A stretch of DNA of 64,000 bases from Polyangium jinanense (GCF_028435265.1 NZ_JAGTJK010000012.1:166900-230899), one strand, 5' to 3'; shown: positions 4,324-45,958, numbered from the stretch's first letter. Numbers and translations: made by a program. The notes: a model not told the origin generated them from the letters alone.

Positions 4324-4527
4324 TTTCCGACGGACCAGGGGCAAGACCAGCGACCGGCTTGCCAACCAAGACAGCAGCGCTGCCCGATGTGCTGGGAACG
4401 TCTCCCCTGTCGACAGCGCGCATCGCGCGCTGTCGCCCCGCGTCCAGGGCTTGCCCTGGTCCGGGTCCAGGGGTGGACAACCCCTGGTCGGGGTCCGGGG
4501 TGAAACCCCGGCGCTACGCTCGGCGAT

Positions 4528-5532
<1,005 letters not shown>

Positions 5533-5902
5533 GGTCCGCCCCTGTAACGCGGAGGCGCGTCCGCGTCGAGGGTGGATGGCGGGTTTTTCTTCACACCGTG
5601 CCCTCCGTTCAGGGGGCGCCCCCTCCGCGGTCCGTTCCCGCGGGATGCGAGGGTGCGTAGGTGGTTGTCCTGCTCGCGGGGCCGTGAGCGTGGGCCGGAG
5701 GCCATGACGTCCACCAACGAGGTGGTACGTCCATCTCGCTCCGTGCTCACGATGCGAGGCTCGACGGAGACCTTGCGCCCGTCGACCAGGCTGCACAAAA
5801 ACCATGGAGCGAGCGGCCACAAGGTTCGACAAGCGGCGGGACGAACCCGTTCTTTCTGCATTGTCGTGCTTCCAGAAACCTGGCGCGATCAAAGGAGCTA
5901 CG

Positions 5903-7912
5903 ATGGCAGCCGTTGAACCGATGGCATTGCCCCCGGATTTTAATCCCGAAACCCTCATGCGCAGCACGAGCACCGAGGTGGGGACCTTCCACGAAACTCG
6001 GCTGGCGGCCCGGCTGGCGGCCCAACTGCTTGCCCATGGTGCGGTCCAGGATATCGAGCTTTCGGAACGTATCCTGGTGGCTGTGCTGCGCTGTCAGGAA
6101 CGGGATGAGCGCGACCCCCACTACGGAAACTTCTACTGGATGCGGGAGGATGAGGTCGTCGAGGACCTGAATGCGGTCGAGTTCGTGCTGGAGGCTCTCA
6201 TTCCCATGATGCTCCAACATGGCGACCGGCTCTCGTCTGTGATGCATGACCGGGTGCTGGAGAGCGTTCGGCTGGGTCTGGAAGAGATCCGGCGGCTGGA
6301 TGTGCTGGTGGCTTATACGAACATTGCCGTTCTGGACATTCTCAATACCTGCCTGGGCGGCGAGTTGCTGGGCGAGACGGCGATCGCCGAACGGGGTTAT
6401 GACAAGCTGGTTTACTGGATCGCCTTTACCAACCGTTCAGGCCATCCTTTTGAGTACAACAGCCCGACCTATACCTCCATCACCCTGCGGGCGCTCAAAC
6501 AGTTGGCAGACCTGGTTCAGCACCGGGACACTCGCGTGCGGGCCAGGGCCATGGCTGCCCGGCTGGCGCTGAGCGTGGCCCTGCACCTTCACGCCGGCAC
6601 CGGCCGTTGGGCCGGTCCCCATAGCCGGGCCTACCATTCCACGGTGGTCTGTGAAACGCCGCCGGAGATCGAGCTGGTCCAGAGTTGGATCGCCGAGGGC
6701 ATTGTTCCTCCCTGGATCCAGGCGGTCCTGGAAGGTTTGCCCGCGGTCTTTCAGGTGAGCGAAACCGCGGAGCGCGATCGTGGATTCAGCTTCACCACCT
6801 ATCAGACCCCGACGTTTGCCCTGGGCGTGGCCAGCCAGCTCTACCAGGTTCAATCCAATGTCTGTTTGCTCCATTATCAGCGGCCGGGCGCAACCCGGCC
6901 CGGGGTTCTCTATACCCGTTATATCCTGGATGATAAGTGGTTCGGCGACTTCTACCATGCGACCGACCGGACCAAGCGTCGCAACCTGCTGGATGAAGGT
7001 CTCTTTTGGGGTGTCCAGCGCGAAAATCAGGCCATCGGTCTTTACACGCCGGCCAATATGACCGAAGGCAAGAGCGCCAAAGCCTGCCTGATCTGGTTGG
7101 ACCGGGCGCAGGTCGACGAGCTGTGGGTCGGCGAGCAGCGGGTCGAAAGCCTCCCCGTGCTCGTGTCGCCAGGGCAGGTGATCGTCGTTGGGAGTGGCGA
7201 TGTATATATGGCGGTGCGTCCTTTGACCCAGACCCCTCTGGGCCGGGAAACTCCCCTCGAACTCGTGGAACGGGACGGGGACTTGGTGCTCGAGTCGTAC
7301 AACTACCGGGGGCCATTCAAGCAATTCTGGGAGATGCACTGGCCCGGCTTCTTTTACGAGGGCCGACCCATTTGTTGTTTTTACCTGGAAGTCGCCGAGC
7401 GCCATGCCTATCCGGATGGCCGCGCCTTTGGACGGCAGGTGTTGCGTGGAACCGTGGAGGAGACGCTCGGGCCTCCCTTTACCTACGCAGCGGCAGGCGA
7501 ACGCGTCTATCGGGTTGCCTACCAGCGTGACGGCCAAGCGTTGGGCCTGGAGGTCGAGCTGATGGCCTGGAAACTCAAACGCCGCTGGACAGAAGCCGGT
7601 GAAATCGGCTGGCCCATGCTGGAAGCGCCTTCGGCCAGGCAGACGAATACCGGGCGGGTGGAGCTCGGTGAAGCCAGCCTGGTTTGTGGCCCTGAAGCAG
7701 CCTGGTTATGGGCGAGCCCGGAAAGCGGCCGCTGGGTTGCCGGCTATCTGGGCCTCACCCCGGCCCCCCTCACCCTGACGACGCCCCAGGGGCAGGTCGA
7801 GGTCACGGAGATGGGCACAGGTACCGTGGTCTGGGATCAGGGCCAGGTGACGGTGGAGGCTACCGGAGAGCCGGTGGTCAAGGTGTCCCTCCACCGCGAC
7901 GACCGTCAGTAA
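5903..7912 (+). CDS. hypothetical cytoplasmic protein (669 aa) on a lower-GC segment
   Basis: ATG at 5903 preceded by AAAGGAG RBS; no signal peptide; coding sequence is visibly less GC-rich (many A/T-ending codons) than its flanks; no motif I can name with confidence. Confidence 0.6.
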   Translation: MAAVEPMALPPDFNPETLMRSTSTEVGTFHETRLAARLAAQLLAHGAVQDIELSERILVAVLRCQERDERDPHYGNFYWMREDEVVEDLNAVEFVLEALIPMMLQHGDRLSSVMHDRVLESVRLGLEEIRRLDVLVAYTNIAVLDILNTCLGGELLGETAIAERGYDKLVYWIAFTNRSGHPFEYNSPTYTSITLRALKQLADLVQHRDTRVRARAMAARLALSVALHLHAGTGRWAGPHSRAYHSTVVCETPPEIELVQSWIAEGIVPPWIQAVLEGLPAVFQVSETAERDRGFSFTTYQTPTFALGVASQLYQVQSNVCLLHYQRPGATRPGVLYTRYILDDKWFGDFYHATDRTKRRNLLDEGLFWGVQRENQAIGLYTPANMTEGKSAKACLIWLDRAQVDELWVGEQRVESLPVLVSPGQVIVVGSGDVYMAVRPLTQTPLGRETPLELVERDGDLVLESYNYRGPFKQFWEMHWPGFFYEGRPICCFYLEVAERHAYPDGRAFGRQVLRGTVEETLGPPFTYAAAGERVYRVAYQRDGQALGLEVELMAWKLKRRWTEAGEIGWPMLEAPSARQTNTGRVELGEASLVCGPEAAWLWASPESGRWVAGYLGLTPAPLTLTTPQGQVEVTEMGTGTVVWDQGQVTVEATGEPVVKVSLHRDDRQ

Positions 7913-19476: not shown

Positions 19477-21450
19477 ATGGTGATGTTCTCGCCCACGGAG
19501 GCCTTGCGGCCCAACTTGCACGTGGAGGTCGCGTCGGGGGACACGCTCGATGTGCGCAAGTTCCAGGTCACGGAGCGCGTGTCGGATCTCTTCGAGGTCC
19601 GCCTCGTGGCGCTCTCGCCGAACCCCGAGATCGACTTCGAGGCCGTGCTCGGGCGGGAGGCGACGTTCACGCTCTCCCGCGACCGGCTCCTCGCCTCCGC
19701 GTACCGCACCTGGGGCGGGATCTGCCATCACATCCAGCAGATCGAGTCGGAGGAGGCCGGGCTCTCCACGTACGAGCTCGTGATCGTGCCGAAGCTCTGG
19801 TTCCTCACGCAGCGGCGCAACCACCGCATGTTCCAGCAGCTTTCGGACCTCGACGTCGTGCTGCAGGTCCTCCGCGAGTGGGGCATCGAGCCCGTGCAGA
19901 AGGTCGACGCGGCCGCCTACAAGAAACGCAAATATCGGGTGCAGTACGGCGAGAGCGATTACGCTTTCGTCTGCCGGCTGCTCGAGGATGCGGGGATCAC
20001 ATTTTACTTCGACCAGCAGGGCGAGGACACGGTGCTCGTCCTTCATGACGCACCGCAGGACAATCCGCCGCGTGAGCCCGCCGTCCGGTTCGTGGACAAA
20101 CCGATGGTGGACAAGGATCTCGAGTTCGTGACCGAGGTGCGTGTCGGGCAACGCACGCGGCCGGGCAAGTACACGATCTTCGACCACGATTACCGGCGGC
20201 CGGCGAACTACAAGCTCATGGGCACGCACGCCGAGGGCGAGGCCTTCGAGCAGCAGATGGAGCGGTTTCATTACGTGCCGGGCGCGTTCCTCTTCCGCAC
20301 CGACGGGCGCGAGCCGACGCCGAGCGCCGACGACAAAGGCGCGGCGCGTCACGACGAGTCGGAGGCCAAGCGCATCGCGCGGATCCGCCTGGAGGCGAAG
20401 CGCGTCGAGGCCCGCAAGGCCACGTTCCGCACGAACCTCGTCGAGCTCCGGCCCGGGACCGTGATGCGTGTCGTCGATCATCCGCGGCGCGAGTTGTCGA
20501 ATCGGCTGCTCGTGGTGCATTCGACCTACGAGGGCACGTCGTTCGGCGAGTGGGTCCACAAGCTCGAGACGCGCAGCGCCGAGATCCACTACCGCCCGCC
20601 GCTCGTCACGCCGAAGCCAAAGGTGAGCGGCGTGGAGAGCGCGACGGTCGTCGGGCCCGCGGGCGAGGAGATTCATACCGACGAGTTCGGCCGCGTGCGG
20701 GTCCATTTCCACTGGGACCGCGAGAGCCAGATGAACCAGGATAGCTCATGCTGGATCCACGTGAGCCAATCGTGGGGCGGCGCGGGCTACGGCGGCGTGC
20801 AGCTTCCGCGCATCGGCCAGGAGGTGATCGTCGATTTCCTCGGCGGTGATCCGGACCGGCCCATCATCGTGGGGCGCGTGTTCACGAATCTGCAAAAGGT
20901 GCCGTATCCGCTGCCGGCGAACAAGACGCAGAGCGGGCTCCGATCGGCGTCGTCGCCGGCGACGGGCGGGTACAACGAGCTCATGTTCGAGGACGCCGCG
21001 GGCCGCGAGCTCATGCGGCTCCAGGCCGAGCGCGACTTCACGGGCCTCGTGAAGCACGATATGCGGTTCAACATCCAGAACGACCGCACGCACAACGTCG
21101 GCAACAACGACACGGAGTCCGTGGTCGGCGAGCAGTCGGTGAAGGTCGCGAAAAAACGCACGGTGCGGGTCAAGCTCGATCAGCAGCACCAGGTCGGGGA
21201 AAACATCCTCACGCAGGCGGTGAACGGCACGGCGACGCACATGTCGAACAAGGCGCTCACGCTCTTCAGCCCGGAGAAGATCGTGCTCTCCACGGCGCCG
21301 AACTCGTTCATCCTGATCACGCCGGGCAAGATCACGATCGAGGCCCCGCTCGTGCACATCAACCCGGGCGATACGTCCGTTCCCAATCCGCCGCAGCCCG
21401 ACGCGATCGGGGACGCCACGACCATCACCGGATACATCGGAGCGCCATGA
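19477..21450 (+). CDS. vgrG: type VI secretion spike protein VgrG (TssI), short form without a C-terminal effector extension
   Basis: ATG at 19477 with GAGGAGAG RBS (upstream 512 aa of the six-frame ORF is Arg-rich and antisense to the malic enzyme gene); gp27-like N-terminus; gp5 OB/spike motifs [11 protein letters not shown] and [24 protein letters not shown]. Confidence 0.9.
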   Translation: [657 protein letters not shown]

Positions 21451-22403
21451 GGGTTCGCAAAGTACGCGTCGACGGATTCCGGGGTTTGCCGGACCAGGAG
21501 TTTTCCCTGACCGATCCGCGCACGGACAGCGCCCACGAGCTCGTGGTCGTGACCGGCCCGCGCGCGAGCGGCAAGACGAGCTTCCTCGAAGCGATCGTCG
21601 CGGCGAAGGAGCAGGTTGGCCCGTATGGCCCCGCCGCGCCGCCGTCGAGTTTCCTGCGCCCCGGCGTGAGCACGGCGAAGGTGCGCGTCGAATGGGAGCT
21701 CTCGAATGGGGAGCGAGATCGGTACGGCACGGGCAAACGCGCATTCGTGAGCGAGTCGATCTTCGGCGACCTCGTGGTCGATCCGCCGGAGCCGGATCCG
21801 GCGCTCGCGGCGTTGCTCTCGGAGTACATCCCGGAGCCGGCGTTCGGGAAGGTCGAGTATTTCCACGCCTCGCGGAGGCTGCCCCTCGGGTCGACGATCG
21901 ATCTGTCGAAATCGGCCGGAGACAGCCTCGATCGTATGGTGAGGCTCGGCCGCGACGACACGAAGTACGCGGGGCTCGTGCGGTTCATCGTGGAGGCGGG
22001 GCTCGGGCTCGACGTGGACGCCGAGGGCAAACCAAAGCCAAAGGGACGCATCAAAAAGGCGTTCGAGGCGCTTTGCCCGACGAAGGAACTCGGAGGGCTC
22101 TACAAGGCGGGGGACGCGATGCTGCCGGTGTTCCTCGACGGACGGCGCAGGGCGTACAGCATCGCGCAGCTCTCGGACAGCGAGCTCGACGCGCTGCTCT
22201 TCGCGACGACATTCGTGCGGGCGGGCATCGGTCAATCGATCGTGCTCGTCGACACGCCGGAGAAGCACCTCGGCGACGTGGAAGCGCGCGAGTTCGTGAA
22301 GGCGCTCGCGACGCTCGGCGCGGACAACCAGCTCATCGTGGCGACGCAATCGGCGGCGCTCGTGTCGAGCGTGCAGGCGGATCAAGTGATCCGGCTCGGG
22401 TGA
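21447..22403 (+). CDS. ABC-class (AAA_21/AAA_15-like) ATPase coupled to vgrG
   Basis: ATGA overlap with the vgrG stop; Walker A VVTGPRASGKTSFLEAI; signature-like LSDSELDALLFA; Walker B/D-loop SIVLVDTPEKHLGD resembling the LIDEPENHLHP motif; 318 aa, no fused nuclease domain. Confidence 0.7.
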   Translation: MRVRKVRVDGFRGLPDQEFSLTDPRTDSAHELVVVTGPRASGKTSFLEAIVAAKEQVGPYGPAAPPSSFLRPGVSTAKVRVEWELSNGERDRYGTGKRAFVSESIFGDLVVDPPEPDPALAALLSEYIPEPAFGKVEYFHASRRLPLGSTIDLSKSAGDSLDRMVRLGRDDTKYAGLVRFIVEAGLGLDVDAEGKPKPKGRIKKAFEALCPTKELGGLYKAGDAMLPVFLDGRRRAYSIAQLSDSELDALLFATTFVRAGIGQSIVLVDTPEKHLGDVEAREFVKALATLGADNQLIVATQSAALVSSVQADQVIRLG

Positions 22404-22407
22404 GGTG

Positions 22408-22836
22408 ATGGCGGTCTACGAGGTCGACGAGTTTTCGTTCGAGGTGCCCGACGGGTACGTCGATCGCAGCATGAACCTGTTCACGCCGCCTGCGGGGCTC
22501 ATGCAGGCGACGCGGCAGAGCCTGCTCGTGACGCGGGAGCCGCGCACGGAGGAGACGGTGTCGCAGCAGGCCTCGCGGCTCGTGAAGGAGCTCGCGGCGA
22601 AGGTGCCGGGGATGAAGGTCCTCGGGCAGCGGGATCGTGCCCTCGGCGCGCTGCCCGGCCGGGAGGCGCGGATCCACGCGGTGCAGGGCACCGTGCCGGT
22701 CTATCAGCGATGTTTTTTCGTGGGCCATTACGGCACGTTGCTCACGGTCATCGCGACGTCGATGCGGTCGCAGAGCGCGCAATGCGATGCGCTCGTCGAG
22801 CGATTCATCTCGAGCTTGCGCCTGAAGAAGCGTTGA
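22408..22836 (+). CDS. DUF1795/DcrB-fold Eag-like T6SS effector chaperone (copy 1)
   Basis: about 143 aa; N-terminal YEVDEFSFEVPDGYVDRSMNLF pattern; sits between vgrG and a TMD-bearing prePAAR protein; the identical-length paralog follows. Confidence 0.5.
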   Translation: MAVYEVDEFSFEVPDGYVDRSMNLFTPPAGLMQATRQSLLVTREPRTEETVSQQASRLVKELAAKVPGMKVLGQRDRALGALPGREARIHAVQGTVPVYQRCFFVGHYGTLLTVIATSMRSQSAQCDALVERFISSLRLKKR

Positions 22837-22851
22837 GGCGGAGGAGGAGCT

Positions 22852-23283
22852 TTGGGCTTTTATCAGACGCAGGAAGCGGGCTTCGAGCTGCCGGCGAACT
22901 GGACCGACGCGAGCATCAACATGCTCGAGTATCCGCGCCCGGAGGGTTTGATCCGGGTGGGTTTGTCGCGGGCCGAGCGCGGGAACCGGGACCTCGCGGC
23001 GAGCCTGGAGGAGGTGATCGTGGAGCAGCGGCGGAAGCTGCCGTTCTTCGAGCTCCTCGGGCGCGTGGATCGCGTCTGCGGGGGTTTGCCCGGGATCGAC
23101 ACGAGGGTCACGTACGAGGAGTCGTCGCGCAAGGTGTATCAGCGGGCGCTCTCGTTTGTGATCGGGGGGCGGTTCTTCGTGCTGGGCGTCAAGGGAACGG
23201 CGACGCAGGAGGCCGAGGTCGACGCGATGTTCGAGCGGGCGGCGTCCACGTTCACGTTACGCGCGCGGCCCTCGGGGGCCTGA
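22852..23283 (+). CDS. DUF1795/DcrB-fold Eag-like T6SS effector chaperone (copy 2, TTG start)
   Basis: TTG at 22852 after GGAGGAGGAG RBS; 143 aa, collinear similarity to copy 1 (YQTQEAGFELPANWTDASINMLEY). Confidence 0.5.
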   Translation: MGFYQTQEAGFELPANWTDASINMLEYPRPEGLIRVGLSRAERGNRDLAASLEEVIVEQRRKLPFFELLGRVDRVCGGLPGIDTRVTYEESSRKVYQRALSFVIGGRFFVLGVKGTATQEAEVDAMFERAASTFTLRARPSGA

Positions 23284-23296
23284 GGAGGGTAGGGCG

Positions 23297-24442
<1,146 letters not shown>

Positions 24443-24444
24443 CC

Positions 24445-26715
24445 CTACCGCCCGCCGCGCCCCGCGGGCTGCGATTGCACCACGCGACCCAGTGCAAGCA
24501 CCCGCAGCGTGATCGGCTCATTGTCCGCCGGATCCTGCTGCGGGTGCGGCTCGGCAATGGCGCGGACGCGGAACTTCGGGAAGAGCGGCAGCTTCTCGGC
24601 GAGCGCCTCCGGCATGTACGTCGGCAAAGGCGATCCGCTGCCCAGAGAGAGTATTCCCCCGATGTGCTCCCCGCCGAAGAGCTTGCGCCTGAGGTAATGC
24701 CGCTCCTCGATCAGAATGCGCTGCGCCGTCGTTTCGAGGTAATCCGACGCGAGCGACCGATTGGCCTGGGCAAACGCCTGCCGCACGCGTGACAGCGCGC
24801 CCTCGAGCAGAGGCACCGCCGCGCTCCGCGGCCCCCGGCAAAGCTCCTCCGCCGCGTCGAGCGCCTCCTTCAGCCGCTTGTCCACCCCCGCGAGCTGCGA
24901 GGCCACGGCGATCGTCGTTTTCAGCGTCTCCAGCGGGTCGCAGGTCATCACGAGCTCGCCATTCACGAGGACGAGCGGCTGTTCGAAGATCCCATCCTCG
25001 TCGATGGCCTCCTCCATCACGCGGGCAATGCCGACCGCGTCGAGCGGAGGCACGCGGCCGAGCGCGCGCCGAATGTCGCGCCGATCGGTCATGGCCTGCG
25101 TCGGTTCCTCCGGTTCCTCGCCCGTGAGCCACTCCGTCGGGCGCTGCGGATCCCGCACGTACGAGGCCCACGCCGATTGCTGACGCACGCGTTGGGGGGC
25201 GCGCTCGTCGAACCAGATCAGATCGACGTATTCCGAGGTCGGCGCGCGGCGCCGCGCAGGTGCGCTCGTCGATATCGCGGGCGCGGCCGGTTCGGGGCGC
25301 GGCGCGGCGACGGCCGCCGCATCGGAGGCCGCCGCGAGGCCGCCGAGCGTCGCCTGGGCATCGTGCACGGGCGGCGCGACGGGCGCGGGCGGCACGGGCG
25401 CCGCGATGGGCACGGGCGCGGGCGGCGCGACGGGCGCGGGCGGGGGCGTATACATCGGCGGCGCAGCCGGGGGCGCGGGGGCCGGCGCGCTCAGCGACGA
25501 GGCCGGCGCACTCAGGAAGGGAAGGCGCCCGCCGGACGCGGGGGGCCGGGCCGCAGGCGCCTCGGGCGCGGGGCTGGGCGTCGACTGGAACGGCAAGACA
25601 CGCCCCGCGGCGGCGGCCTGCGCGAGGCTCGGATCGGCGATCGTCTGGGCCCGCGGCGGCACGGGTTTCGCGGATTTCGCCTCCGCGTCGTCGTTCGGGG
25701 GAATCGATTTTTGCGGGCGCGGCGGCGCCTCGGGCGCGGCCGCGGACTTCGAGGGCGGCGCGTTGTCGAGCCAGATTCGCACCTCGCCCGGTTCGTCGCG
25801 CTGGCGCATGGGGATCTGCGCGCGGAACGTCAGCGTGCAGAGCAGCCGATCGGTATCGATCCACAAGGTATCGGCGCGCATCGGCTGCGCGGCCGCGCCG
25901 CGGCCCTCGATCAGGAACACCGGCTGGAGGCCCGGCAGGTTCGTGACGAGCCGCGGCACGCTCGGGTGTAAGTTTTCGAGGATGATCCGCGCGTTCGGGG
26001 GCAGGAAATCGGTCTGCTGATCCGGCGGCGCCGCATTGAAATAGCGGAAATCGAAGCCGTCGGGGACGTGTGATTCGTACCAGCGCTCGGGCAAGCTGCT
26101 CCGGGCGAGCGCGCCGAGCCGCTCGCGCCGGGAGGGCCACGCGGGCGCGAGCGGGCCGAACCCGACGGGCTCGACGTAATCGGCGGGGGCGCGGACCGTG
26201 ACGCCCGGCCACGTGAGGTTCGGCACGCGCACGCGCCCCATTCCGTCGGCCCATCCCGCGCGCACGCCGACCGGATTCGCCGTGTCCGGACCACCGCCGG
26301 ACCGCTCGTAGACGAGCGGCATGCGCGCGAAGCGTTGCCCCTCGGCGAGGGATCCGTCGGGCTGGAACCAGCGATCCAGGGTGACCTCGATCGACTTGTC
26401 GACCTCGCCGACGATGAGCCGCGCGACGACCGAGCGCGCGGGGACCTGCTGCGGCGCGTGCGCGGAGCCCACGAGGAGCACGTCCGCGCGAGGCTTGAAG
26501 GGCACGAGGTCGCCGGGCGCGCGCAGGCTTCGGTTCGTGTCGTCGTCCCAGTGCTCGTCGGCGGAGGTGATGTCTTCTTGCGCCTCGGCGAGCTGGGACG
26601 TGCCCGGCGCGAGGGAAAACGTCGCCTTGCAGACGAGCGTGAACACCCACCCCTGCGAGCGGTTCGGCCAGACCAAAGGCGCACAGGGGAACGGGATGTT
26701 CGAGACGATTTTCAT
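24445..26715 (-). CDS. extended DUF2169-like protein (T6SS cargo adaptor family), 756 aa, with Pro/Ala-rich linker and extra C-terminal helical domain
   Basis: N-terminus MKIVSNIPFPCAPLVWPNRSQGWVFTLVCKATFSLAPG is the characteristic DUF2169 start as I recall it; T6SS island context; convergent, 2 bp from the PAAR-protein stop. Confidence 0.5.
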   Translation of the reverse strand: MKIVSNIPFPCAPLVWPNRSQGWVFTLVCKATFSLAPGTSQLAEAQEDITSADEHWDDDTNRSLRAPGDLVPFKPRADVLLVGSAHAPQQVPARSVVARLIVGEVDKSIEVTLDRWFQPDGSLAEGQRFARMPLVYERSGGGPDTANPVGVRAGWADGMGRVRVPNLTWPGVTVRAPADYVEPVGFGPLAPAWPSRRERLGALARSSLPERWYESHVPDGFDFRYFNAAPPDQQTDFLPPNARIILENLHPSVPRLVTNLPGLQPVFLIEGRGAAAQPMRADTLWIDTDRLLCTLTFRAQIPMRQRDEPGEVRIWLDNAPPSKSAAAPEAPPRPQKSIPPNDDAEAKSAKPVPPRAQTIADPSLAQAAAAGRVLPFQSTPSPAPEAPAARPPASGGRLPFLSAPASSLSAPAPAPPAAPPMYTPPPAPVAPPAPVPIAAPVPPAPVAPPVHDAQATLGGLAAASDAAAVAAPRPEPAAPAISTSAPARRRAPTSEYVDLIWFDERAPQRVRQQSAWASYVRDPQRPTEWLTGEEPEEPTQAMTDRRDIRRALGRVPPLDAVGIARVMEEAIDEDGIFEQPLVLVNGELVMTCDPLETLKTTIAVASQLAGVDKRLKEALDAAEELCRGPRSAAVPLLEGALSRVRQAFAQANRSLASDYLETTAQRILIEERHYLRRKLFGGEHIGGILSLGSGSPLPTYMPEALAEKLPLFPKFRVRAIAEPHPQQDPADNEPITLRVLALGRVVQSQPAGRGGR

Positions 26716-26819: not shown

Positions 26820-28109
26820 TCAATGGCAGCAGGTATTGCTGGCCCAGGCCACGCCGCCGCCGGACCGGTAGATCACGACGTTGCCGTCGTTCTGTACGGC
26901 GAGATTGGCGTAGTAATTCGACGAGCCGGCCGTGCCCGAGGCCCAGACGGGCTGGCCCGTGGACTTGTAGATCACGAGGTTGCCGTCCTCCTGCATGATG
27001 GCGCGGTCGCCGCCCTTGCCGTTCGTGCCGGAGGCCCAGAGCGGCGAGCCGCCCTGGTAAAGCACGAGGTTGCCGTCGCCCTGGAACTTGAGCTGGAAGC
27101 GGCCGTCACACGACCAGACCGATTGCTCCGCCCCGAGCCCCTGGCCGGAAGAAAGCCAGCCGCAGCCCGACGGCGACGCATACGCGGCGTAACGCGACCA
27201 GATGCCCGCGCGATCGTCGTCCGCGAGCGAGGTGTCGTTGCCGGTGTAATACGCATACATGGTCGCGGCCGAGTCGGTCGAATGGCCGAGGCCGAGGGCG
27301 TGACCGACCTCGTGCAGGGCGACGGTCTCGAGGTAGGCCGAGGACCAGCCCTCCGCGTCGTCGAAATGCACGTCGCCTCCGAGGCCGCCGCCCGGCGAAT
27401 AGGCGTGGGCGAGGACGCCGGACGAGCCGTCGAATGCACTGCTGCAGCCATGGCTGCCCGTGTAGAACCCGAACGAGATGTTCTCGCCCGAGCTCACCTC
27501 GGAGAAGCTCAAGGACGAGGAGGATCGCCACGAGAAGAGCGCGTTCTCGATCGCGGAGCGAACGGAGGCCTGGGCGAAGTCCGAGGTGTAATTCGCGAAC
27601 CGATAGGTCAGCGCCGTGGACGACCAGGTCCCGCCGAAGTGCGTGTAGGGGTCGATGTCGAGGGTCGGCACGACGCTCGGCGGATCGTAATAATCGGGGT
27701 GGCTGCAGCGCGGCATCTGCATGATTCGCTGCGTCGCGGCGTCGACGACGCCGGTCACGGGCAGGCCGTGCTGGGCCTGGTAGAGGCGCACGCCCTCTTC
27801 GAGGGCCTCGTCGAAGAGCTCCGGATCGGCCGGCTCGCGTGAGACGGCGGGCGTCCAGTCGGCGTAATGCTCGGCGAGCTCCTCGTTCTGGTAATACCCA
27901 TAGCGACGCAGATACTCGTACACGCCGCGCACCTCCGCGCCCCGCGCGCCGAGCCCGAGGCCCGCGGCGCTCTCGGCATCCACGGAAGCCTCGTCGCCGA
28001 GCGTCGAGACGTCGTCGCCCGCGCATCCCACGAGGGTCGTCGAGGCGGCCAGGGCGAGAGGCGCGAGAAACAGTGCGAAGCGGGAGTCGAAAAGGTTCGT
28101 CGAGGCCAT
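26820..28109 (-). CDS. secreted M10 matrixin-type zinc metalloprotease with N-terminal peptidoglycan-binding domain and C-terminal bulb-type (B-)lectin repeats
   Basis: ATG at 28109 (MASTNLFDSRFALFLAPLALAASTTLVGCAGDD lipobox; upstream 118 aa of the ORF is Arg/Pro-rich); HEVGHALGLGHS zincin motif; PG_binding_1-like YLRRYGYY; three QxDGNxVxY repeats. Confidence 0.85.
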   Translation of the reverse strand: MASTNLFDSRFALFLAPLALAASTTLVGCAGDDVSTLGDEASVDAESAAGLGLGARGAEVRGVYEYLRRYGYYQNEELAEHYADWTPAVSREPADPELFDEALEEGVRLYQAQHGLPVTGVVDAATQRIMQMPRCSHPDYYDPPSVVPTLDIDPYTHFGGTWSSTALTYRFANYTSDFAQASVRSAIENALFSWRSSSSLSFSEVSSGENISFGFYTGSHGCSSAFDGSSGVLAHAYSPGGGLGGDVHFDDAEGWSSAYLETVALHEVGHALGLGHSTDSAATMYAYYTGNDTSLADDDRAGIWSRYAAYASPSGCGWLSSGQGLGAEQSVWSCDGRFQLKFQGDGNLVLYQGGSPLWASGTNGKGGDRAIMQEDGNLVIYKSTGQPVWASGTAGSSNYYANLAVQNDGNVVIYRSGGGVAWASNTCCH

Positions 28110-28465
28110 GGGATTGATTCTCCGTATGCGAGGGATGAAAGCCCCTATCGCAACGGACATGCCACCTCGGCGGGGCGCGGGGCCCTTGGGGCGATCCTGT
28201 CGAAAGGAATGGTGTTTTCGGGGACGGGACGGGGGGCGCGAGGGCGGGGCGTGTCGAGGGTTGGAGGTGCCAGCCTCCAGGCATGGAGGTGGGAACCGCC
28301 AACGCGCGCCCGGCGGACGGGCATGGCGCCGGGGCGGATACGCTTGCCGGAGGAGCGCTCGGTCCGAGGGGAGATCCGTGCACACGGCACCTCGTGGCTC
28401 GAGGATTGCTGCGCGGGACGCGGAATCGCGAGCCAAGCGCTCGCGCGCAGCCATTGGGGGCAATC

Positions 28466-31340: not shown

Positions 31341-34300
31341 TCAGAGATCGAAGAGCTCGTCGTCCTGGCCCGCGTCTTCCTCGGCGAGGAGGGCCTCCGC
31401 GTGCTTGGCGACCGATTCGAAGAATTTTTGCTCGGGGGATTTCGGGGGCAATCGAGCAGCGGCTTCCCGGGCCTGCGAGCGGAGGAGCGTTTCGCTGCGC
31501 TCTGCCCGGGCGCCCGAGCGCGGTCGCGCCTGGCCCGTGACGACCGAGAAGAGCGCGCTCCGGACCCGCTCGAAGCAGCCCTCGCCGGTCGTGTGCGCGC
31601 GCCGGAGGAGCGTCGCGACGAGCTCGAGGTGCGCGAAGAGGAAGGTGGGCGGCGCCTCTTCGAGGAGCGCGGAGATCGCTTCGAGCTCGCTCTCGCCGCC
31701 GTCCTGCACCCACTCGGAGAGGACCTCGACCGTCGGTAACGCAAACGAGCGCGAGGCGTCGTGGAAGAGGCGCGCGGCATGGAAGCGGACCCAGCCAATG
31801 CGGGCCCGCGCGAGGTGGCGGACACGGCGCAGGAGCGGGAGCCACTCCGGCGAGCGCGCGAGGCCCGTGAGGATCGCAGACAAGCCCTCGGGCGGGAGCG
31901 GCTCGTACTCCTCGGCGCCCGCGACGATGCCGGACGCGGCGCGCGCGATGCGCTCGATGAAGAGGCCCGTGACGTCCTCGGGCATGCGCTTGCCGGCGTG
32001 GTGGAGGAAGCGCATCGTGGAGTGGCCGTCGAGGCTGCGGGCCGCGCCGAGGCGCGTGAGGAAGAGGATGATCTCCTCCTCGGAGAGCGCGCCTTCGGAG
32101 AAGAGGCCGCCCGCGTCGAGGGCGCCGAAGAGGGCCTCGGCGACCTCGGGGCCCTCGGAGAGGTCCACGCCGACCGCGAGCTCGACCGCGTCGCGTGGAG
32201 AGGACTTGGCCAGCGTGCGGAGCGCGCCGAGCGCCGCGCGTCGGACGAAGCCGTCGCGGTGCCCGAGGAGGTGCCGGAGCGCTTCGCGATCGCCCGGCAG
32301 GGGCTTTTCGACCCAGCGATGGAAGACCTGCGCGAGCGAGGCGCAAAGCGTGGCGTTGCCGCCCCCGACGATGCTGCCGACGAGGGCCTCGGCGCGCTCG
32401 GGCGAGGCTTCGCGGAGCGCGTGGAGCAAGGAGGCGACGTGCGGGCCGAGTGGGCTCTCGGGCGCGCCCATGACGGCCTCGCAAATGGTCACCGCCGCCG
32501 CCGGGTGCTTGCGGGAGAGGACGTGCAGGAGGAGCCGCGGCGAGCCGGATTTGCCCGCGAGCGCGAGGGCTTCGAGCGCCGCGCCGAGCCCCTCGGCCGT
32601 CTGCGCAGGCGCGCGGCCCTCGGCGAGCATCTCGTCGACGACGGCGCGACAGGCGTCCGCCGAGCGGCGCTCCGTGCCACGATCGATCTCGCCCGAGCCC
32701 GGGATCTCGCTCGGCGGCATGTCGATCAAGCCGCGCTGCGCGGGTGAGCGTTGCGTGAGGGCCTCGTAGAGCCTGCGCTCCGTCGAGGTCGGGACGTTGC
32801 CGAGGGCCGTCTCGGCCGCGGCGCGGACGTCCGGAGAGCTCGCACGCCGGGCCGCGCGGCGAAGCGCGTCGGCGACGGCGAAATGGACGAGCGGGTCGCC
32901 GGAGTTCGACGCGGCGGCGCCGAGCATCGCGAGGATCTCGAGCCGCTCCTCGTCGCGCCACCCAGGCTCCATCCGCTCGCCGAGCGAAGAACCACCGGAG
33001 CCGTCGGAGAGGACACGCTCGAGGCCGTTGACCCCCGAGAGAGCCGCGCGTCGTTTCGGCGATTGCGCGCAGCCGGAGAGCGCGGCGAGGGCTTGCTTCC
33101 GCAGGGCGCGGCGGCGCTCGTCGGAGGGGCCGGCGAAGGCGGCGCCCTCGGAGAGGAAGGTGTCGATCACGTCGAGCGGTGAGTGCTTGTGATCGTGCGC
33201 GTCGTCCGCGACGAGCCATCGATCGACGGCGTCGAGCAAGGACTCGTGGACGCCGGCAGGGCGCGCCGACGAGCGCGAGGCGAGCTCGCGGAGGACACGC
33301 ATGGGGTGATCGGGGTGCGGGCTCTGGAGACGGAGATCGTCGCGGCCGAGCTCCCAGAGGAGGTCGGCGGCGCGGGGCAAGTGCGCGAGGTGCAGGCCCA
33401 CGCGGCGCAGGATCGCGGGGAGCTCGTAGAGGACGGACACGGCGGAGAAGAGGGCGCTGGGGCCCCGCGCGGCCTCGGTCTGCGCAGGAGAACGGAGGAC
33501 CGCCGCGGCGAGGTCGAGCATCGCGGCGGGATGATCCGAGGAGAGCTCACGCAGGCCGGCGAGGAGGCGGCATCGATCCGCCGCCGAGGCCGCGTCGATG
33601 CCCGCGCGGACGTGGCGGAAGAGGGCGGTCGTGATCTCGTCGGAAGCGCCGCTCGGGAGGGAGGGGCCGTCGAGCTCGCCGGCGTTGCGGATGAGCGGGA
33701 CGATGGCGTGGGCGCCGAAGCGCTCTTCCAGCGCGCGCACGCGATCGTCGAGCGAGCCCGCGAGGCTGCCCGCGGTCAAGGGGCCGACGAGCGCGCGGTA
33801 GAGCGCGTGATCCGAGAGCGCGCCGGGGACGACACGCGCGCCGTGTGGGCCCCGATCGACGACGCCCGCGGCTTCGAGCGCGCGGAGCGCCGACACGAGA
33901 TCACGACGGCGACACCCGAGCAGATCCCCCGCGCCCTGAAGGAAGCGCTCGTCCGAGGTGCGCACCGGCGCGAGGAGCGCGACGAGCGCGAGCACGCCGG
34001 CGAGGAGTTTTGGATCCCCCGCGGCGGAGGAGCGGAGCAGGAGCAGCTCGTGGCCCCGATCGAGCGCGCATGCCGCGAGCTCGCCCTTGCCGAGCAAGAC
34101 GGGATGAATGGCCTCTTCCCGCACGAGCCGGCCGGCCAGCGCGATCACGAAGGGATGCCCCTCGGCGTGCTTGGCGAGGGCGGCAGCGAACTCGCCGGGC
34201 GCATCGCCGAGCACATGCTGCGCGGCCGCTTCCGCCTCGCTCGGCGAGAGCGCGCCGAGCTCGGGCAGGATGCGCACCAGGTCCGACGAGAGCCCGACCT

Positions 34301-34787
34301 GCGCGAGGAGCGCCGAGAGGCGCGGCAGGCCCGCGGGGCGCGTCGTCAGCACGAAGCGCACGTCGCGGCGATCGATCGCCATGGGCAGGAGCATCGCGGG
34401 CGCGGCTTTGCGGCCCGCGTCGTCGATCACGATCAGGCACGGGCCGGGCGGCAGGCGTGTCGGGGTCGGCGCGCTGGTGATGTCGGTCGCGAAGCGCAGC
34501 ATGGTGCCGACCCGCTGCGCGGCGAGGGCGTCGGCGAGCGCGGAGAGCAGGCTCGTCTTGCCGGAGCCGGAGCGCCCGGGGAGCACGGCGACGCGCGCCG
34601 GGCCGCGTGCGCTTGCGAAGTCGACGAGGGCCGCGAGGATTTCGGCGCGCCCGCCGAAGGGCAGCGCTTCCTGGAAGGGGCGGCCTGCGGCGAGCGCGCC
34701 GCCTTCGAACTCGCTCGGGCCAAAGAGCGCCACACCGTGCTCGATGTGGGCGTCCGGAGGAGTGGGGAAGCCGAGGGTCGTCTCCAT
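31341..34787 (-). CDS. STAND-type P-loop NTPase with a large alpha-helical repeat C-terminal domain (1149 aa)
   Basis: ATG at 34787; FGGRAEILAALVDF, then Walker A LPGRSGSGKTSLLSALA and Walker B PCLIVIDDAG; more than 800 aa of Ala/Leu-rich helical repeats; upstream 76 aa of the ORF is Arg-rich. Confidence 0.75.
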   Translation of the reverse strand: METTLGFPTPPDAHIEHGVALFGPSEFEGGALAAGRPFQEALPFGGRAEILAALVDFASARGPARVAVLPGRSGSGKTSLLSALADALAAQRVGTMLRFATDITSAPTPTRLPPGPCLIVIDDAGRKAAPAMLLPMAIDRRDVRFVLTTRPAGLPRLSALLAQVGLSSDLVRILPELGALSPSEAEAAAQHVLGDAPGEFAAALAKHAEGHPFVIALAGRLVREEAIHPVLLGKGELAACALDRGHELLLLRSSAAGDPKLLAGVLALVALLAPVRTSDERFLQGAGDLLGCRRRDLVSALRALEAAGVVDRGPHGARVVPGALSDHALYRALVGPLTAGSLAGSLDDRVRALEERFGAHAIVPLIRNAGELDGPSLPSGASDEITTALFRHVRAGIDAASAADRCRLLAGLRELSSDHPAAMLDLAAAVLRSPAQTEAARGPSALFSAVSVLYELPAILRRVGLHLAHLPRAADLLWELGRDDLRLQSPHPDHPMRVLRELASRSSARPAGVHESLLDAVDRWLVADDAHDHKHSPLDVIDTFLSEGAAFAGPSDERRRALRKQALAALSGCAQSPKRRAALSGVNGLERVLSDGSGGSSLGERMEPGWRDEERLEILAMLGAAASNSGDPLVHFAVADALRRAARRASSPDVRAAAETALGNVPTSTERRLYEALTQRSPAQRGLIDMPPSEIPGSGEIDRGTERRSADACRAVVDEMLAEGRAPAQTAEGLGAALEALALAGKSGSPRLLLHVLSRKHPAAAVTICEAVMGAPESPLGPHVASLLHALREASPERAEALVGSIVGGGNATLCASLAQVFHRWVEKPLPGDREALRHLLGHRDGFVRRAALGALRTLAKSSPRDAVELAVGVDLSEGPEVAEALFGALDAGGLFSEGALSEEEIILFLTRLGAARSLDGHSTMRFLHHAGKRMPEDVTGLFIERIARAASGIVAGAEEYEPLPPEGLSAILTGLARSPEWLPLLRRVRHLARARIGWVRFHAARLFHDASRSFALPTVEVLSEWVQDGGESELEAISALLEEAPPTFLFAHLELVATLLRRAHTTGEGCFERVRSALFSVVTGQARPRSGARAERSETLLRSQAREAAARLPPKSPEQKFFESVAKHAEALLAEEDAGQDDELFDL

Positions 34788-35040
34788 GGAGTATCGAGCG
34801 CGCCGCGGGGCGAGCGCGCAAAGCCTACCACGGGGGGCGCCTCGCCCGGCGAGGGTTTGGAGGCGATTCAGCTCCCGAGACAAAACTCTCGGGGGGAGAG
34901 GGGGGGCCTCACCCCCGCGACCGTTCCCCGCTGGGCCGTGAGCCGGACAGACAACATCCGCGCTCTTTGTCTTTTGTCTTGCCCGACCCGTTCGTCCTCC
35001 TGATAGATGGGCCACAGCTCATCGCAGGAGGGGTTTCCAG

Positions 35041-42833: not shown

Positions 42834-43859
42834 ATGACGACGACGGGCGACTTTCAAAAAAGGCTCGAGCGGGCCCGCGAGGCGAGCGCGCGCCTCAAGG
42901 ACGCGATCGGGCAGGTGATCGTGGGCCAGGGCGAGGTCGTGGAGCAGGCGCTCTGGGGCCTCGTGGCCGGCGGGCACGTGCTGCTCGAAGGCGCGCCCGG
43001 GCTCGGCAAGACGCTGCTCGTGCGCACGATCGCGAGCTGTCTCGACCTGAAGTTCTCGCGCATCCAGTTCACGCCCGACCTCATGCCGAGCGACGTGACG
43101 GGCACGAACATCCTCGTGACGTCGGCCGACGGATCGAGGCACTTCGCCCTGCACAAGGGGCCGATCTTCGGCCAGGTCGTGCTCGCGGACGAGATCAACC
43201 GCGCGACGCCGAAGACGCAGAGCTCGCTGCTCGAAGCGATGCAGGAGCACGCGTGCACGATCGGCGGCGTGCGGCACGCGATGGAAGAGCCGTTCTTCGT
43301 GCTCGCCACGGAGAACCCGATCGAGATGGAAGGGACGTACCCGCTGCCGGAAGCGCAGCTCGATCGATTTCTGCTCAAGGTGATCGTGCCGAGCCCGACC
43401 GAGGACGAGATGACCGAGATCCTCGCGCGCACGACGGGACAACCGAAGGACGCGCCGCCGCGCGTGCTCGATCGCGACGAGGTGCTCGCGATCCGCTCAG
43501 CATGCCGCGACGTCGCCGTGGCCGAGCCGATCATGCGCTTCGCCTCGCGCCTCGTCCGCGCGAGTGATCCGACGACACAAGGCGCGCCCGATCTCGTGCG
43601 GCGCGCGATCCGCTACGGCGCGGGCGTGCGCGGCGCGCAGTCGCTCGTGCTCGCGGCCAAGGCCGTGAGCGTGCTCGAAGGCCGCGCGCACGTCTCGTTC
43701 GGCGACGTGCAGCGCGTCGCCAAGCCCGTCCTGCGCCACCGCCTGATCCGATCCTTCGAGGGCGAGGCCGACGGGATCACGACCGATCAGGTGGTCGACG
43801 CGCTCGTCGAGAGCGTGCCCGCCCGGCCGGAGAACGTGGAGCAGGCGATCCGTCGATGA
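42834..43859 (+). CDS. MoxR-family AAA+ ATPase
   Basis: Walker A GAPGLGKTLLVRTIA; Walker B/sensor VLADEINRATPKTQSSLLEAMQE; typical MoxR length. Confidence 0.9.
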   Translation: MTTTGDFQKRLERAREASARLKDAIGQVIVGQGEVVEQALWGLVAGGHVLLEGAPGLGKTLLVRTIASCLDLKFSRIQFTPDLMPSDVTGTNILVTSADGSRHFALHKGPIFGQVVLADEINRATPKTQSSLLEAMQEHACTIGGVRHAMEEPFFVLATENPIEMEGTYPLPEAQLDRFLLKVIVPSPTEDEMTEILARTTGQPKDAPPRVLDRDEVLAIRSACRDVAVAEPIMRFASRLVRASDPTTQGAPDLVRRAIRYGAGVRGAQSLVLAAKAVSVLEGRAHVSFGDVQRVAKPVLRHRLIRSFEGEADGITTDQVVDALVESVPARPENVEQAIRR

Positions 43860-45958
43860 GGCTCCGCGCGCTCTCTCTGGTCCCGATCCTCGCGCTCGCG
43901 CCGGTCGCGACGCACGCCGAGCCCGCGCCGACGATCGCCGCGACGTCCATCGCAGAGGTGCCCCCGCCGGGGCGTGCGAACGTGTCCTTCGAGGTCGCGC
44001 CGCTGCTCGGCTCGACCTCGCCGACGCCCGCGGGCTGGAGCGGGTTCCTCGTGCGGGTGCAGAACAACGAGGCGAAGCCGCTGCGCGGCGAGGTCGAGGT
44101 TCTGAGCCGGCTGCACTCGGACCAGATGCGCTTTCGCGCGACGGCGCCGTTCGTCGTCGGCGCGGGGACGAGCGTGGTCGTCCGGCTGCCGACGCACGGA
44201 GCCGTGTACGGCGAGACCAACGTCGTCGCACGGGACGACGCGGGCGTGGTGCTCGGCAGCCACACGGCGGCCGTGACGAACATGCAGGAGGTCTTCCTGC
44301 TCGACGTGAGCGAGACGTCGCGGCTCAAAGGCGCGCTCCATGACGCCTCGATCTCGCCGCTGTTCTCGCCGTGGGGCGGCTACGGCGCGTACGGCACGGG
44401 GCCGCAGCTCAAGGTGGGCGCGCCGCGCTTCGATCCGGCGACGGGTGATCCGATCCTGCCCGATCGCGCCGCGCTCTACGCGCCCGCCTCCGCCGTGCTT
44501 TTGCGCTCGGACACGCTCGTGAAGATCGGCGCGGCCGAGCTCGAAGCGCTGAGCGGATACGTCCTCGCCGGCGGCACGCTCGCGGTCGCGCTCGCGCGCC
44601 CCGAGGACCTCCGGAGCCCCCTCCTCGCCGCGTTCGCGGGCGGCGAGATCGCGCAGACGTCGGTGCACTCCGAGACGCTGCGGGAGCTCGTCCTGCCTTC
44701 GGCGCCCTCGAACGCCACGAAGTCGATCCCCTTCGCCGAAGCGGCGAACGAGGAGGTCGCAAAGACGCTCGTCGGCTTCTCCGGCGGCAACCTGCACGGG
44801 AGCCGCTACGGGGCCTCGGCAACGTACGGACTCGGCGAGTTTCACCTGCTCGCCTTTGATCCCACGCGCAAGCCCGCGGTCGACGACCCTTGGGCACAGG
44901 CGCGCGTGCTCGATCTCACGCGCAGGGCCTTCGATCGGAAGAGTTCGATCGTCTACCGCCAGGGCGGCTCGCCCGGCACCGTGGATCTCGATCGCGTGCG
45001 GCAGGAGCTCGATCCGAACGAGAGCTCGCGCTGGGGGATCGCGGTCGCCGCGCTCCTGCTCATCGTCTACGCGGTCCTCGCGGGACCGGTGAACTTCACG
45101 ATGCACGGGAGCAAGGGCAAACCCCTGCGCGCGCTCGTGTGGCTGCCGATCCTCTCGGCGATCGCGTTCTTCGCGGTCGTGCTCATCGGCCTCGCCGCGA
45201 AGGGCCTCTCGGGTCGGTCGCGCCACCTCACGCTCGTCGAGGCAGGCGCGGGCATGACGAAGGGCACGGCGCGGCGGTGGCGTGGCTTCTTCACGCCGCG
45301 ATCGAAGGATCTCACCGTTCGCACGAGCGACGGGTCGAGCGTGGTCACCACCGCGGTCGTGGCCGCGCCCGCGACGATCGACGATCACATGCTCGTCGAT
45401 CGCGACGGCGCGCGCCTCGTCGATCTCGCGCTCTTGCCCTGGCAAACCGTGGTCGTCCGCGAGGACGGGTTCGCCGATGTCGGCGAGGGGATCTCGATCG
45501 TGCGCGAGGGCGAGAAGGACACGGCCGTGACGAACCGGAGCGGCCACGATCTGCGGGCCGCGGTGCTCGTCTTGCCGGGCCTAGAGCCGCGGTATTTCCC
45601 GATGATCAAGGACGGCGAGCGGGTGCTCGCGAGCGCGGGCAAGGACGTGAAGGCGTCGCCCCAAGGGACGACCTGGGTCCGGCAGATCGGCGGCACGCGG
45701 CGCGCGGGATCGTTGGATCTTCATCCGCTCGCCGGGCACTACCTGGGCACCTTGATCAACGCCGACGCGCCCGGGCTCGGCGAGGCGTGGCTCGCCGTCG
45801 AGGGCAGCTCGGGCGGGCTCGTGGACTGGTTCCCCGAGGACGTGCCGGTGCTTCTCGGTCAGCTCGACGGCGGTGAGGGCAAGACCTCGGATGCGGGCCT
45901 CAAGCTCGAACGGGATCGGCTGCTCGTGCGGGTCGTCGGATACGGAGGTCGGCCGTGA
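43856..45958 (+). CDS. membrane protein (signal peptide plus C-terminal TM helices), hypothetical
   Basis: ATGA overlap with the MoxR stop; MRLRALSLVPILALAPVATHA; TM segments WGIAVAALLLIVYAVLAG and LVWLPILSAIAFFAVVLIGLA. Confidence 0.6.
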   Translation: MRLRALSLVPILALAPVATHAEPAPTIAATSIAEVPPPGRANVSFEVAPLLGSTSPTPAGWSGFLVRVQNNEAKPLRGEVEVLSRLHSDQMRFRATAPFVVGAGTSVVVRLPTHGAVYGETNVVARDDAGVVLGSHTAAVTNMQEVFLLDVSETSRLKGALHDASISPLFSPWGGYGAYGTGPQLKVGAPRFDPATGDPILPDRAALYAPASAVLLRSDTLVKIGAAELEALSGYVLAGGTLAVALARPEDLRSPLLAAFAGGEIAQTSVHSETLRELVLPSAPSNATKSIPFAEAANEEVAKTLVGFSGGNLHGSRYGASATYGLGEFHLLAFDPTRKPAVDDPWAQARVLDLTRRAFDRKSSIVYRQGGSPGTVDLDRVRQELDPNESSRWGIAVAALLLIVYAVLAGPVNFTMHGSKGKPLRALVWLPILSAIAFFAVVLIGLAAKGLSGRSRHLTLVEAGAGMTKGTARRWRGFFTPRSKDLTVRTSDGSSVVTTAVVAAPATIDDHMLVDRDGARLVDLALLPWQTVVVREDGFADVGEGISIVREGEKDTAVTNRSGHDLRAAVLVLPGLEPRYFPMIKDGERVLASAGKDVKASPQGTTWVRQIGGTRRAGSLDLHPLAGHYLGTLINADAPGLGEAWLAVEGSSGGLVDWFPEDVPVLLGQLDGGEGKTSDAGLKLERDRLLVRVVGYGGRP

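Follow-up and report, generated by a model that had tools for sequence, protein, structure and literature searches.

Two adjacent genes on the plus strand of a 64-kb stretch of the Polyangium jinanense genome (hereafter the window, with positions counted from its first nucleotide), eag1 (22408-22836) and eag2 (22852-23283), very probably encode an ancient pair of paralogous type VI secretion system (T6SS) chaperones of the Eag (DUF1795) family, co-transcribed with genes for a VgrG spike, an ATPase and a PAAR protein bearing a prePAAR motif and a transmembrane domain (TMD), and forming an obligate pair across the Polyangiaceae. Eag1 (142 amino acids, aa) is the canonical-like paralogue and Eag2 (143 aa) a diverged one with a more polar pocket. 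The plus strand holds five packed genes in the order vgrG, ATPase, eag1, eag2 and prePAAR-TMD-PAAR gene, with gaps of -4 to 15 nucleotides (nt) and, in a terminator scan, no plus-strand terminator inside the cluster; scanning the locus for promoters and terminators was otherwise uninformative. The first gene of the operon is vgrG (19477-21450, 657 aa, start located), whose orthologues carry Phage_GPD, Phage_base_V and Gp5_trimer_C domains and whose stop codon overlaps the ATPase start (ATGA), indicating translational coupling. The ATPase gene lies at 21447-22403, and the presumed client of both chaperones, a 381-aa spike-tip protein, is encoded at 23297-24442. Because the 64-kb window contains no T6SS core genes, we regard the cluster as an auxiliary vgrG island. 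The window has a GC content of 69%, and deposited P. jinanense proteins match its gene products at 100%.

An earlier note on this DNA had described two adjacent, same-strand paralogous genes, a description borne out by their open reading frames, by a third-position GC content (0.90 for eag1, 0.91 for eag2) typical of real genes in this window, and by a pairwise alignment that is collinear over the full length of the products at 30% identity (E 1e-19), with a profile-profile probability of 98.9%. The identical length of 143 aa that it gave both products holds for Eag2 and not for Eag1: the mechanical reading frame of eag1 begins at GTG 22405, one codon 5' of ATG 22408, and the ATG (MA[IV]YE…) is the start in the NCBI model and in all orthologues, yielding 142 aa. 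The TTG start proposed for eag2 is present behind a strong Shine-Dalgarno sequence read directly from the DNA (GGAGGAGGAG at 22840-22849; whole element 22840-22854, +), agrees with NCBI protein P0020 (143 aa, 100% identity and coverage) and has non-ATG counterparts in the Polyangium eag2 orthologues of L001, L002 and L010. Of the shared end motifs, the N-terminal one is found as Y4, E8, F11-E12-[VL]-P14, [YW]17, D19, S21 and N23 in both proteins, and the C-terminal one is also shared and is better written DAxxERxxSxxxLxxR. A DNA repeat search found no nucleotide-level similarity between eag1 and eag2, indicating that the duplication is old. Eag1 is basic (isoelectric point about 9.5), Eag2 near neutral and single Eags acidic, and comparison of net charge and isoelectric point revealed no clear complementarity of either paralogue with the client.

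Family profiles and structural models both assign the pair to the Eag chaperones. As the proposed DUF1795 membership implies, both proteins score above the gathering threshold of Pfam DcrB (PF08786, which is DUF1795; 27.2 bits), Eag1 at 48.2 bits (E 1.5e-12) and Eag2 at 43.9 bits (E 3.1e-11); no NCBIfam model was found for either. Paralogue family profiles built from 19 Eag1 and 12 Eag2 sequences and run against the PDB matched EagT6 (6xrf/1tu1; E 7e-10 and 2.7e-9, respectively) and SciW (1e-7 and 1e-5), and the Eag1 profile matched DcrB at 0.009 where the Eag2 profile gave no match. AlphaFold2 models of Eag1 (predicted local distance difference test, pLDDT, 77.7) and Eag2 (pLDDT 81.8) show the anticipated DcrB fold, and Foldseek placed both closest to the EagT6-Tse6NT complex 6xrf (template modelling score, TM, 0.78 for Eag1 and 0.75-0.77 for Eag2) with SciW next, EagT6 and SciW matches together spanning TM 0.7-0.78. 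The N-terminal 10-20 residues have pLDDT <50 in both monomer models, as expected for an arm that is domain-swapped in Eag dimers (PMC7773334) and was modelled alone. DcrB itself, the Salmonella and Escherichia coli periplasmic lipoprotein for which PF08786 is named, belongs to the same Pfam family and fold but scores below the Eags, and unlike DcrB the two proteins stand in a T6SS context and have neither signal peptide nor lipobox, their N-termini (MAVYEVDEF in Eag1, MGFYQTQEA in Eag2) lacking a hydrophobic leader. We therefore identify Eag1 and Eag2, as predicted from these profiles and models, as Eag-type cytoplasmic chaperones.

Conservation across loci indicates that both copies are kept. 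Loci were collected by an Eag1-alignment scan of species-representative genomes, an effector-alignment scan of metagenomes and from individual contigs, with a census by custom hidden Markov models (HMMs). The order vgrG-ATPase-eag1-eag2-effector is common to all related loci, of which about 11 are distinct and which come from Polyangium species, Chondromyces apiculatus, and Polyangiaceae metagenome-assembled genomes (MAGs) and metagenomes; wherever an Eag1-type gene occurs, down to 39% Eag1 identity, an Eag2-type gene follows it directly and the ATPase gene precedes it. The pairwise distances among Eag1 proteins track those among Eag2 proteins at r = 0.97 (0.96 with the ATPase), and the ratio of nonsynonymous to synonymous substitution (dN/dS) is 0.29-0.59 for eag1 and 0.31-0.55 for eag2. 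The two paralogues separate into two clades of parallel internal topology in neighbour-joining (NJ) trees. Because the distances co-vary and dN/dS lies well below 1, both genes are, on this comparative evidence, under purifying selection, maintained and co-diverging. It is accordingly most improbable that the second gene is a redundant or decaying duplicate that does the same job or is being lost. Eag paralogues do commonly outnumber prePAAR effectors within a genome (PMC7773334), but here both copies are retained in every locus, intact and with high third-position GC, and each is marked by invariant residues of its own at a mutual identity of only 30%.

The two paralogues differ in the residues of the predicted client-binding pocket. 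In EagT6 the TMD-contact residues are I22, I24, V39, A62, L66, L98, F104 and I113, together with S37, S41, Q58 and Q102 (PMC7773334). At the equivalent positions, mapped in alignments of about 20% identity to EagT6, Eag1 keeps a hydrophobic or polar pattern like that of single Eags from related loci (N/S at 37, L at 58, L/F at 62, Q/Y at 102 and F/Y at 104). Eag2 retains S41 but carries R/H, R, Q, S/A/T and S/G at positions 37, 58, 62, 102 and 104, respectively, so that relative to EagT6 it has changed S37 to R/H, Q58 to R, A62 to Q and F104 to S/G, placing an invariant Arg in its palm strand. The L66 knob is invariant in Eag2, where it lies within a KLPFFE motif, and is not invariant in Eag1. 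Since the Eag1 pocket is like that of single Eags, and since in the nearest class II loci the single Eags match the Eag1 HMM only, Eag1 is, judged by its pocket residues, ancestral-like, and Eag2 is derived and more polar.

The presumed client matches Pfam PAAR_motif (E 1.1e-10) and, weakly, prePAAR_I, in agreement with the placement of the eag pair before a prePAAR/PAAR gene. Its prePAAR motif, AVRLEDKVEH (residues 7-16, 23315-23344; consensus AARxxDxxxH as defined in PMC7773334), is followed on the plus strand by a Gly/Ala-rich hydrophobic region, TMD1 (residues 16-62, of which about 17-60 lie at 23345-23476; it reaches 2.5 in the 19-residue Kyte-Doolittle mean), the PAAR domain (residues 72-132, 23510-23692; Pfam), a conserved post-PAAR segment (residues 141-255, 23717-24061; core KRFSGELPEWFWLSREGLGIVAMF at 23747-23818) occupying the place of the class II TMD2, and a Gly/Ser/Asn low-complexity tail (24062-24439) that ends in the conserved motif LALPAPPPRLALPPPSGG (24356-24409). 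As in the EagT6-Tse6/Tas1 systems of Pseudomonas aeruginosa (class II), whose EagT6 is the best PDB match of our chaperones by both profile and structure and has the same DUF1795 fold, a chaperone gene lies directly 5' of a small prePAAR-TMD-PAAR gene, and the best PDB match of the client is the class II effector Tas1 (6ox6, E 2.5e-7). That alignment passes the PAAR domain and GELPEWFWLSREGLGIVAM and stops exactly at the start of Tas1 TMD2, beyond which the client and its orthologues have a conserved, weakly hydrophobic stretch of about 100 aa; the post-PAAR segment is conserved among 7 orthologues.

The earlier note had read two chaperones for a PAAR protein with two hydrophobic segments as consistent with one chaperone per TMD, an argument that is not supported in that form. 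The client has one robust hydrophobic region (16-62); residues 180-230 are not hydrophobic, and the only other hydrophobic stretch is weak (about 160-175, 15-residue mean about 1.1). No post-PAAR 19-residue Kyte-Doolittle window exceeds 1.5 in the window protein or in three of the four other tandem-eag effectors scored, the exception being L009 (1.64), and when 7 orthologues were scanned with a 15-residue window, three of them (from Polyangium and Chondromyces) absent from the 19-residue scan, the same weak post-PAAR hydrophobicity emerged. By comparison, in about 18 loci whose prePAAR effectors are more distant, a single eag gene occurs and the ATPase is absent; their small effectors are textbook class II proteins with a C-terminal domain and with TMD1 and TMD2 both >2.2 (post-PAAR TMD2 2.2-2.6 in ten single-eag relatives), and their large effectors are Rhs proteins of class I. 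Relatives with two strong TMDs thus have a single eag and the one-TMD client has two, indicating that TMD count does not explain gene number, and in the published class II model two dimers of one Eag serve each effector (PMC12881460).

By its domain content, the client also lies outside both of the prePAAR effector classes that have been published (PMC7773334), because it has no toxin domain, no Rhs repeats and no class II Gly motif. It does share some class II features, namely the prePAAR motif, an N-terminal TMD region, the PAAR domain and small size. However, no Pfam or NCBIfam domain was found after PAAR in the client, and none of 8 tandem-eag effectors has the GxxxxGxxLxGxxxD-type motif that follows class II TMD2; 9 of 10 single-eag small relatives have a variant that is shorter by one residue (G.WAGGELFGEGSD). 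Where the Pseudomonas systems have one eag for both TMDs and no ATPase gene, here two diverged eag genes and an ATPase gene accompany a client with no hydrophobic TMD2, Gly motif or toxin domain and with a low-complexity tail instead. Where class II effectors have an adjacent immunity gene, the gene after the client is a convergent DUF2169 fusion. Class I systems (SciW-Rhs1, EagR1-RhsA) use the same chaperone family, supply the second-best PDB matches and likewise have a single client TMD region, N-terminal to PAAR, but they have a single eag gene and their clients are toxin-bearing Rhs proteins with lengths from about 1200 aa upwards, whereas the client here has 381 aa with no Pfam match to Rhs/YD repeats.

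The tail of the client, encoded by DNA with 9-nt periodic repeats, varies by species (G/S/N in P. jinanense, poly-Pro in both P. sorediatum and P. fumosum, repeats of GGP in Chondromyces and of LALPAPQPQ in a MAG), and the client orthologues have a terminal motif, LALPAPxPxLxLPPPSGG, in common; it looks like a disordered linker with a docking motif. Public assemblies L002, L003, L004, L006 and L010 break inside this repetitive coding region, indicating that deposited effector orthologues such as P0033 are truncated. A homologue search with the effector was dominated by low-complexity words and gave one match, and the effector orthologues used here were drawn from the retrieved loci.

If TMD number does not account for the second gene, the two paralogues may still divide labour on a single client, and we tentatively propose that Eag1 acts on prePAAR-TMD1 and Eag2 on the degenerate post-PAAR segment. 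Eag1, with its ancestral hydrophobic claw and as a domain-swapped dimer, would grip prePAAR and TMD1 (about residues 7-60) in the manner of EagT6 on Tse6, and Eag2, with a Leu knob and LPFF claw tip over an Arg/Gln/Ser palm, would cover the aromatic, weakly hydrophobic segment (about residues 150-190, core GELPEWFWLSREGLGIVAMF), which would be a degenerate remnant of the class II second TMD. Together they would keep the client soluble and able to cap VgrG until firing. This subfunctionalisation is the most economical account because a derived Eag2 is paired with a derived client segment and class II effectors have two Eag sites; one paralogue per client segment therefore remains a live and mildly favoured idea, though the second segment is not a TMD.

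Several observations weigh against this division of labour or blur it. In mirror-tree partial correlations controlled for ATPase distance, the post-PAAR segment gives the highest value for Eag1 and for Eag2 alike (0.61 and 0.73), so this comparison does not show Eag2 to track that segment more specifically than Eag1. The EagT6 contact positions on which the pocket contrast is drawn were mapped at the low alignment identity given above. Bootstrap support in the Poisson-distance NJ tree is about 52% per paralogue clade with deeper nodes unresolved, and the tree leaves the timing of the duplication relative to L044, L046 and L050 undecided. A candidate amphipathic helix at client residues 185-202 exceeds the 95% shuffle level of a hydrophobic-moment scan in P. 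jinanense only, a marginal signal. At L050, a distantly related ATPase-linked locus, a single Eag accompanies a PAAR protein with no strong second TMD, so a second chaperone is not forced by client architecture. Finally, the LPFF claw tip of Eag2 would also suit the GxxxG/A-rich TMD1, favouring a heterodimer.

That alternative, an obligate Eag1-Eag2 heterodimer forming one asymmetric claw on a single prePAAR-TMD1 region, is nearly as probable. The transmembrane helices would lie against a hydrophobic face of Eag1 and the acidic prePAAR helix against a polar, basic face of Eag2, which would also supply the Leu knob; the post-PAAR segment would need no chaperone. Consistent with such a partnership, the two genes always lie side by side at 1:1 and in the same order, and their products co-diverge (r = 0.97). 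The N-terminal swapped-arm motif is retained in both proteins, and their pocket residues have diverged in opposite directions, with L66 invariant in Eag2 and not in Eag1. A client with one true TMD region would need one claw only, and since the monomers of homodimeric Eags make non-equivalent contacts, with prePAAR occupying the entire binding face of one EagT6 monomer (PMC12881460), this asymmetry could have become hard-wired after duplication. The prePAAR-TMD1 region is, however, not unusual in comparison with relatives served by a homodimer and presents no obvious need for an asymmetric claw, and the open-access papers searched describe no tandem or heterodimeric Eags, an absence that is not proof. 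Paralogues of homomers often remain heteromeric. The SycN-YscB chaperone of the type III secretion system is a heterodimer inside a normally homodimeric chaperone class, with two paralogous genes replacing a homodimer for one client; it has an unrelated fold and belongs to a different secretion system, so this precedent bears on the heterodimer alone and not on the division of labour between client segments.

The ATPase gene encodes a 318-aa ABC/SMC-type P-loop ATPase of AAA_21/AAA_15-like type (21447-22403, +; Pfam AAA_21, 29.5 bits) in which the Walker A motif TGxxxxGKTS, the ABC-like signature QLSDSE and the Walker B motif hhLhDTPE are invariant across 10 orthologues, Walker B reading DTPE versus the usual DEPE. 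It is present in every tandem-eag locus. An exhaustive search recovered about 90 clusters (50% identity) of full-length relatives at E <1e-30, and in every sampled contig long enough to show neighbours the ATPase gene immediately follows vgrG and precedes a DcrB gene; adjacency to vgrG and eag also occurs at loci where the ATPase is 33-40% identical. These include L044 (ATPase 4391-5347), with two Eags and a PAAR effector of 522 aa that has a C-terminal domain; L048 (ATPase 4469-5419), with one Eag and a prePAAR protein of 330 aa whose TMD2 is strong; L046, where ATPase and Eag are followed by the contig end; and L050 (ATPase 5001-5945), with one Eag and with DUF2169 and PAAR genes nearby. L042 (1-5987) reads vgrG-DcrB-second vgrG-ATPase (5001-5987), its DcrB gene lying between two vgrG genes in an order unlike that of the window. 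Because the ATPase adjoins an Eag at such distant loci, the ATPase-Eag link is, by this comparison of gene neighbourhoods, older and broader than the Eag duplication.

The same loci bear on a third explanation, that Eag1 alone chaperones the PAAR protein and Eag2 has become an adaptor or regulator for the ATPase, VgrG, the DUF2169 fusion or cargo encoded elsewhere. An invariant palm Arg and several polar replacements at the TMD-contact positions of Eag2 would suit this, as would the many charged residues that are invariant in both paralogues and not conserved in canonical Eags, and the eag pair occurs only in ATPase-containing modules. We nonetheless consider it quite improbable: Eag2 conserves its fold and the claw-tip L66/LPFF, the ATPase-linked single-Eag modules L048 and L050 indicate that the ATPase does not need Eag2, and no fusion or other link to a partner of Eag2 was found. 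A Rosetta-stone search among 150 ATPase representatives found no ATPase-Eag fusions. Longer ATPases carry a Pro/Ala-rich linker and a small helical C-terminal domain that is not DcrB, as in the relatives P0119, P0140, P0143 and P0183 (31-35% identity; …LEQYA…W…W…), and BLASTP of this helical domain against the C-terminus of the L050 DUF2169 protein gave no match.

We infer that the co-encoded ATPase would assist assembly or release of the chaperone-client complex, a proposal motivated by the fact that release of the very tight Eag-TMD grip is an open question, for which a 2026 study speculated on a baseplate component or TssM (PMC12881460). Open-access papers yielded no account of a T6SS role for such an ATPase or of its linkage to eag or vgrG, although this absence is not proof.

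Next to the operon, the convergent gene at 24445-26715 (-) encodes a 756-aa DUF2169 fusion protein (Pfam E 5e-70) with an N-terminal DUF2169 domain (25822-26646), the TvpA-type PAAR chaperone (bioRxiv 10.64898/2026.02.23.707444), and a conserved C-terminal domain of about 290 aa with no Pfam match (24448-25308). TvpA/DUF2169 chaperones (Tap2, PA0097, VP1398), like Eags, shield hydrophobic surfaces of PAAR proteins, and a DUF2169 gene adjoins the PAAR gene both here and at L050; they belong to a different fold and family, however, the described Tvp systems have DUF4150/PAAR and no Eags (bioRxiv 10.64898/2026.02.23.707444), and here DUF2169 is fused to an extra domain. This C-terminal domain is 48% identical to a stand-alone gene (L008 8632-9927, +) and adjoins the effector gene in L001, L008, L009 and L012, with relatives also at L012 7105-8430 (+), L009 9348-11309 (+) and L001 7828-8793 (-). 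The effector genes L008 7387-8631 and L001 6884-7822 share the tail pattern and terminal peptide. The role of the domain might be that of a partner to the effector tail, of an immunity protein or of an adaptor.

Beyond the DUF2169 gene, 26820-28463 (-) encodes a 547-aa secreted-looking protein with peptidoglycan-binding and matrixin (M10) protease domains and a C-terminal part that looks lectin-like on reading, and 31341-35015 (-) encodes a 1224-aa protein with a sub-threshold nSTAND NTPase match (28.2 bits versus a cut-off of 34). The window also contains a MoxR-type AAA ATPase (42834-43859, +), an ABC transporter ATPase (45955-47184, +) and several large open reading frames with no Pfam match. 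A defence-system reading of the locus was rejected, as PADLOC returned only generic ABC-ATPase similarity (PtuA, AriA, GajA) for the ATPase, with no match for either Eag or for the PAAR effector, and the vgrG/PAAR context speaks against it.

A combined model, in which an obligate heterodimeric Eag claw works with a dedicated ATPase that uses ATP to load the client or to strip it from the Eags, is unlikely. If true, it would provide the first heteromeric Eag and the first ATP-driven effector-chaperone cycle of a T6SS, serving a third architectural class of prePAAR proteins that combine one TMD with a degenerate second segment and end not in a toxin but in a disordered tail bearing a terminal peptide motif. 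Eag chaperones have been described as homodimers with one gene per effector, and the Polyangium locus instead has two co-evolving, differently lined paralogues. The split pair is a natural experiment on which half of the claw does what, or on how a second segment that is not a TMD is handled; the ATPase between vgrG and eag is a concrete candidate for energy-dependent loading or release, and a client with no recognisable toxin raises the question of what cargo the spike tip carries.

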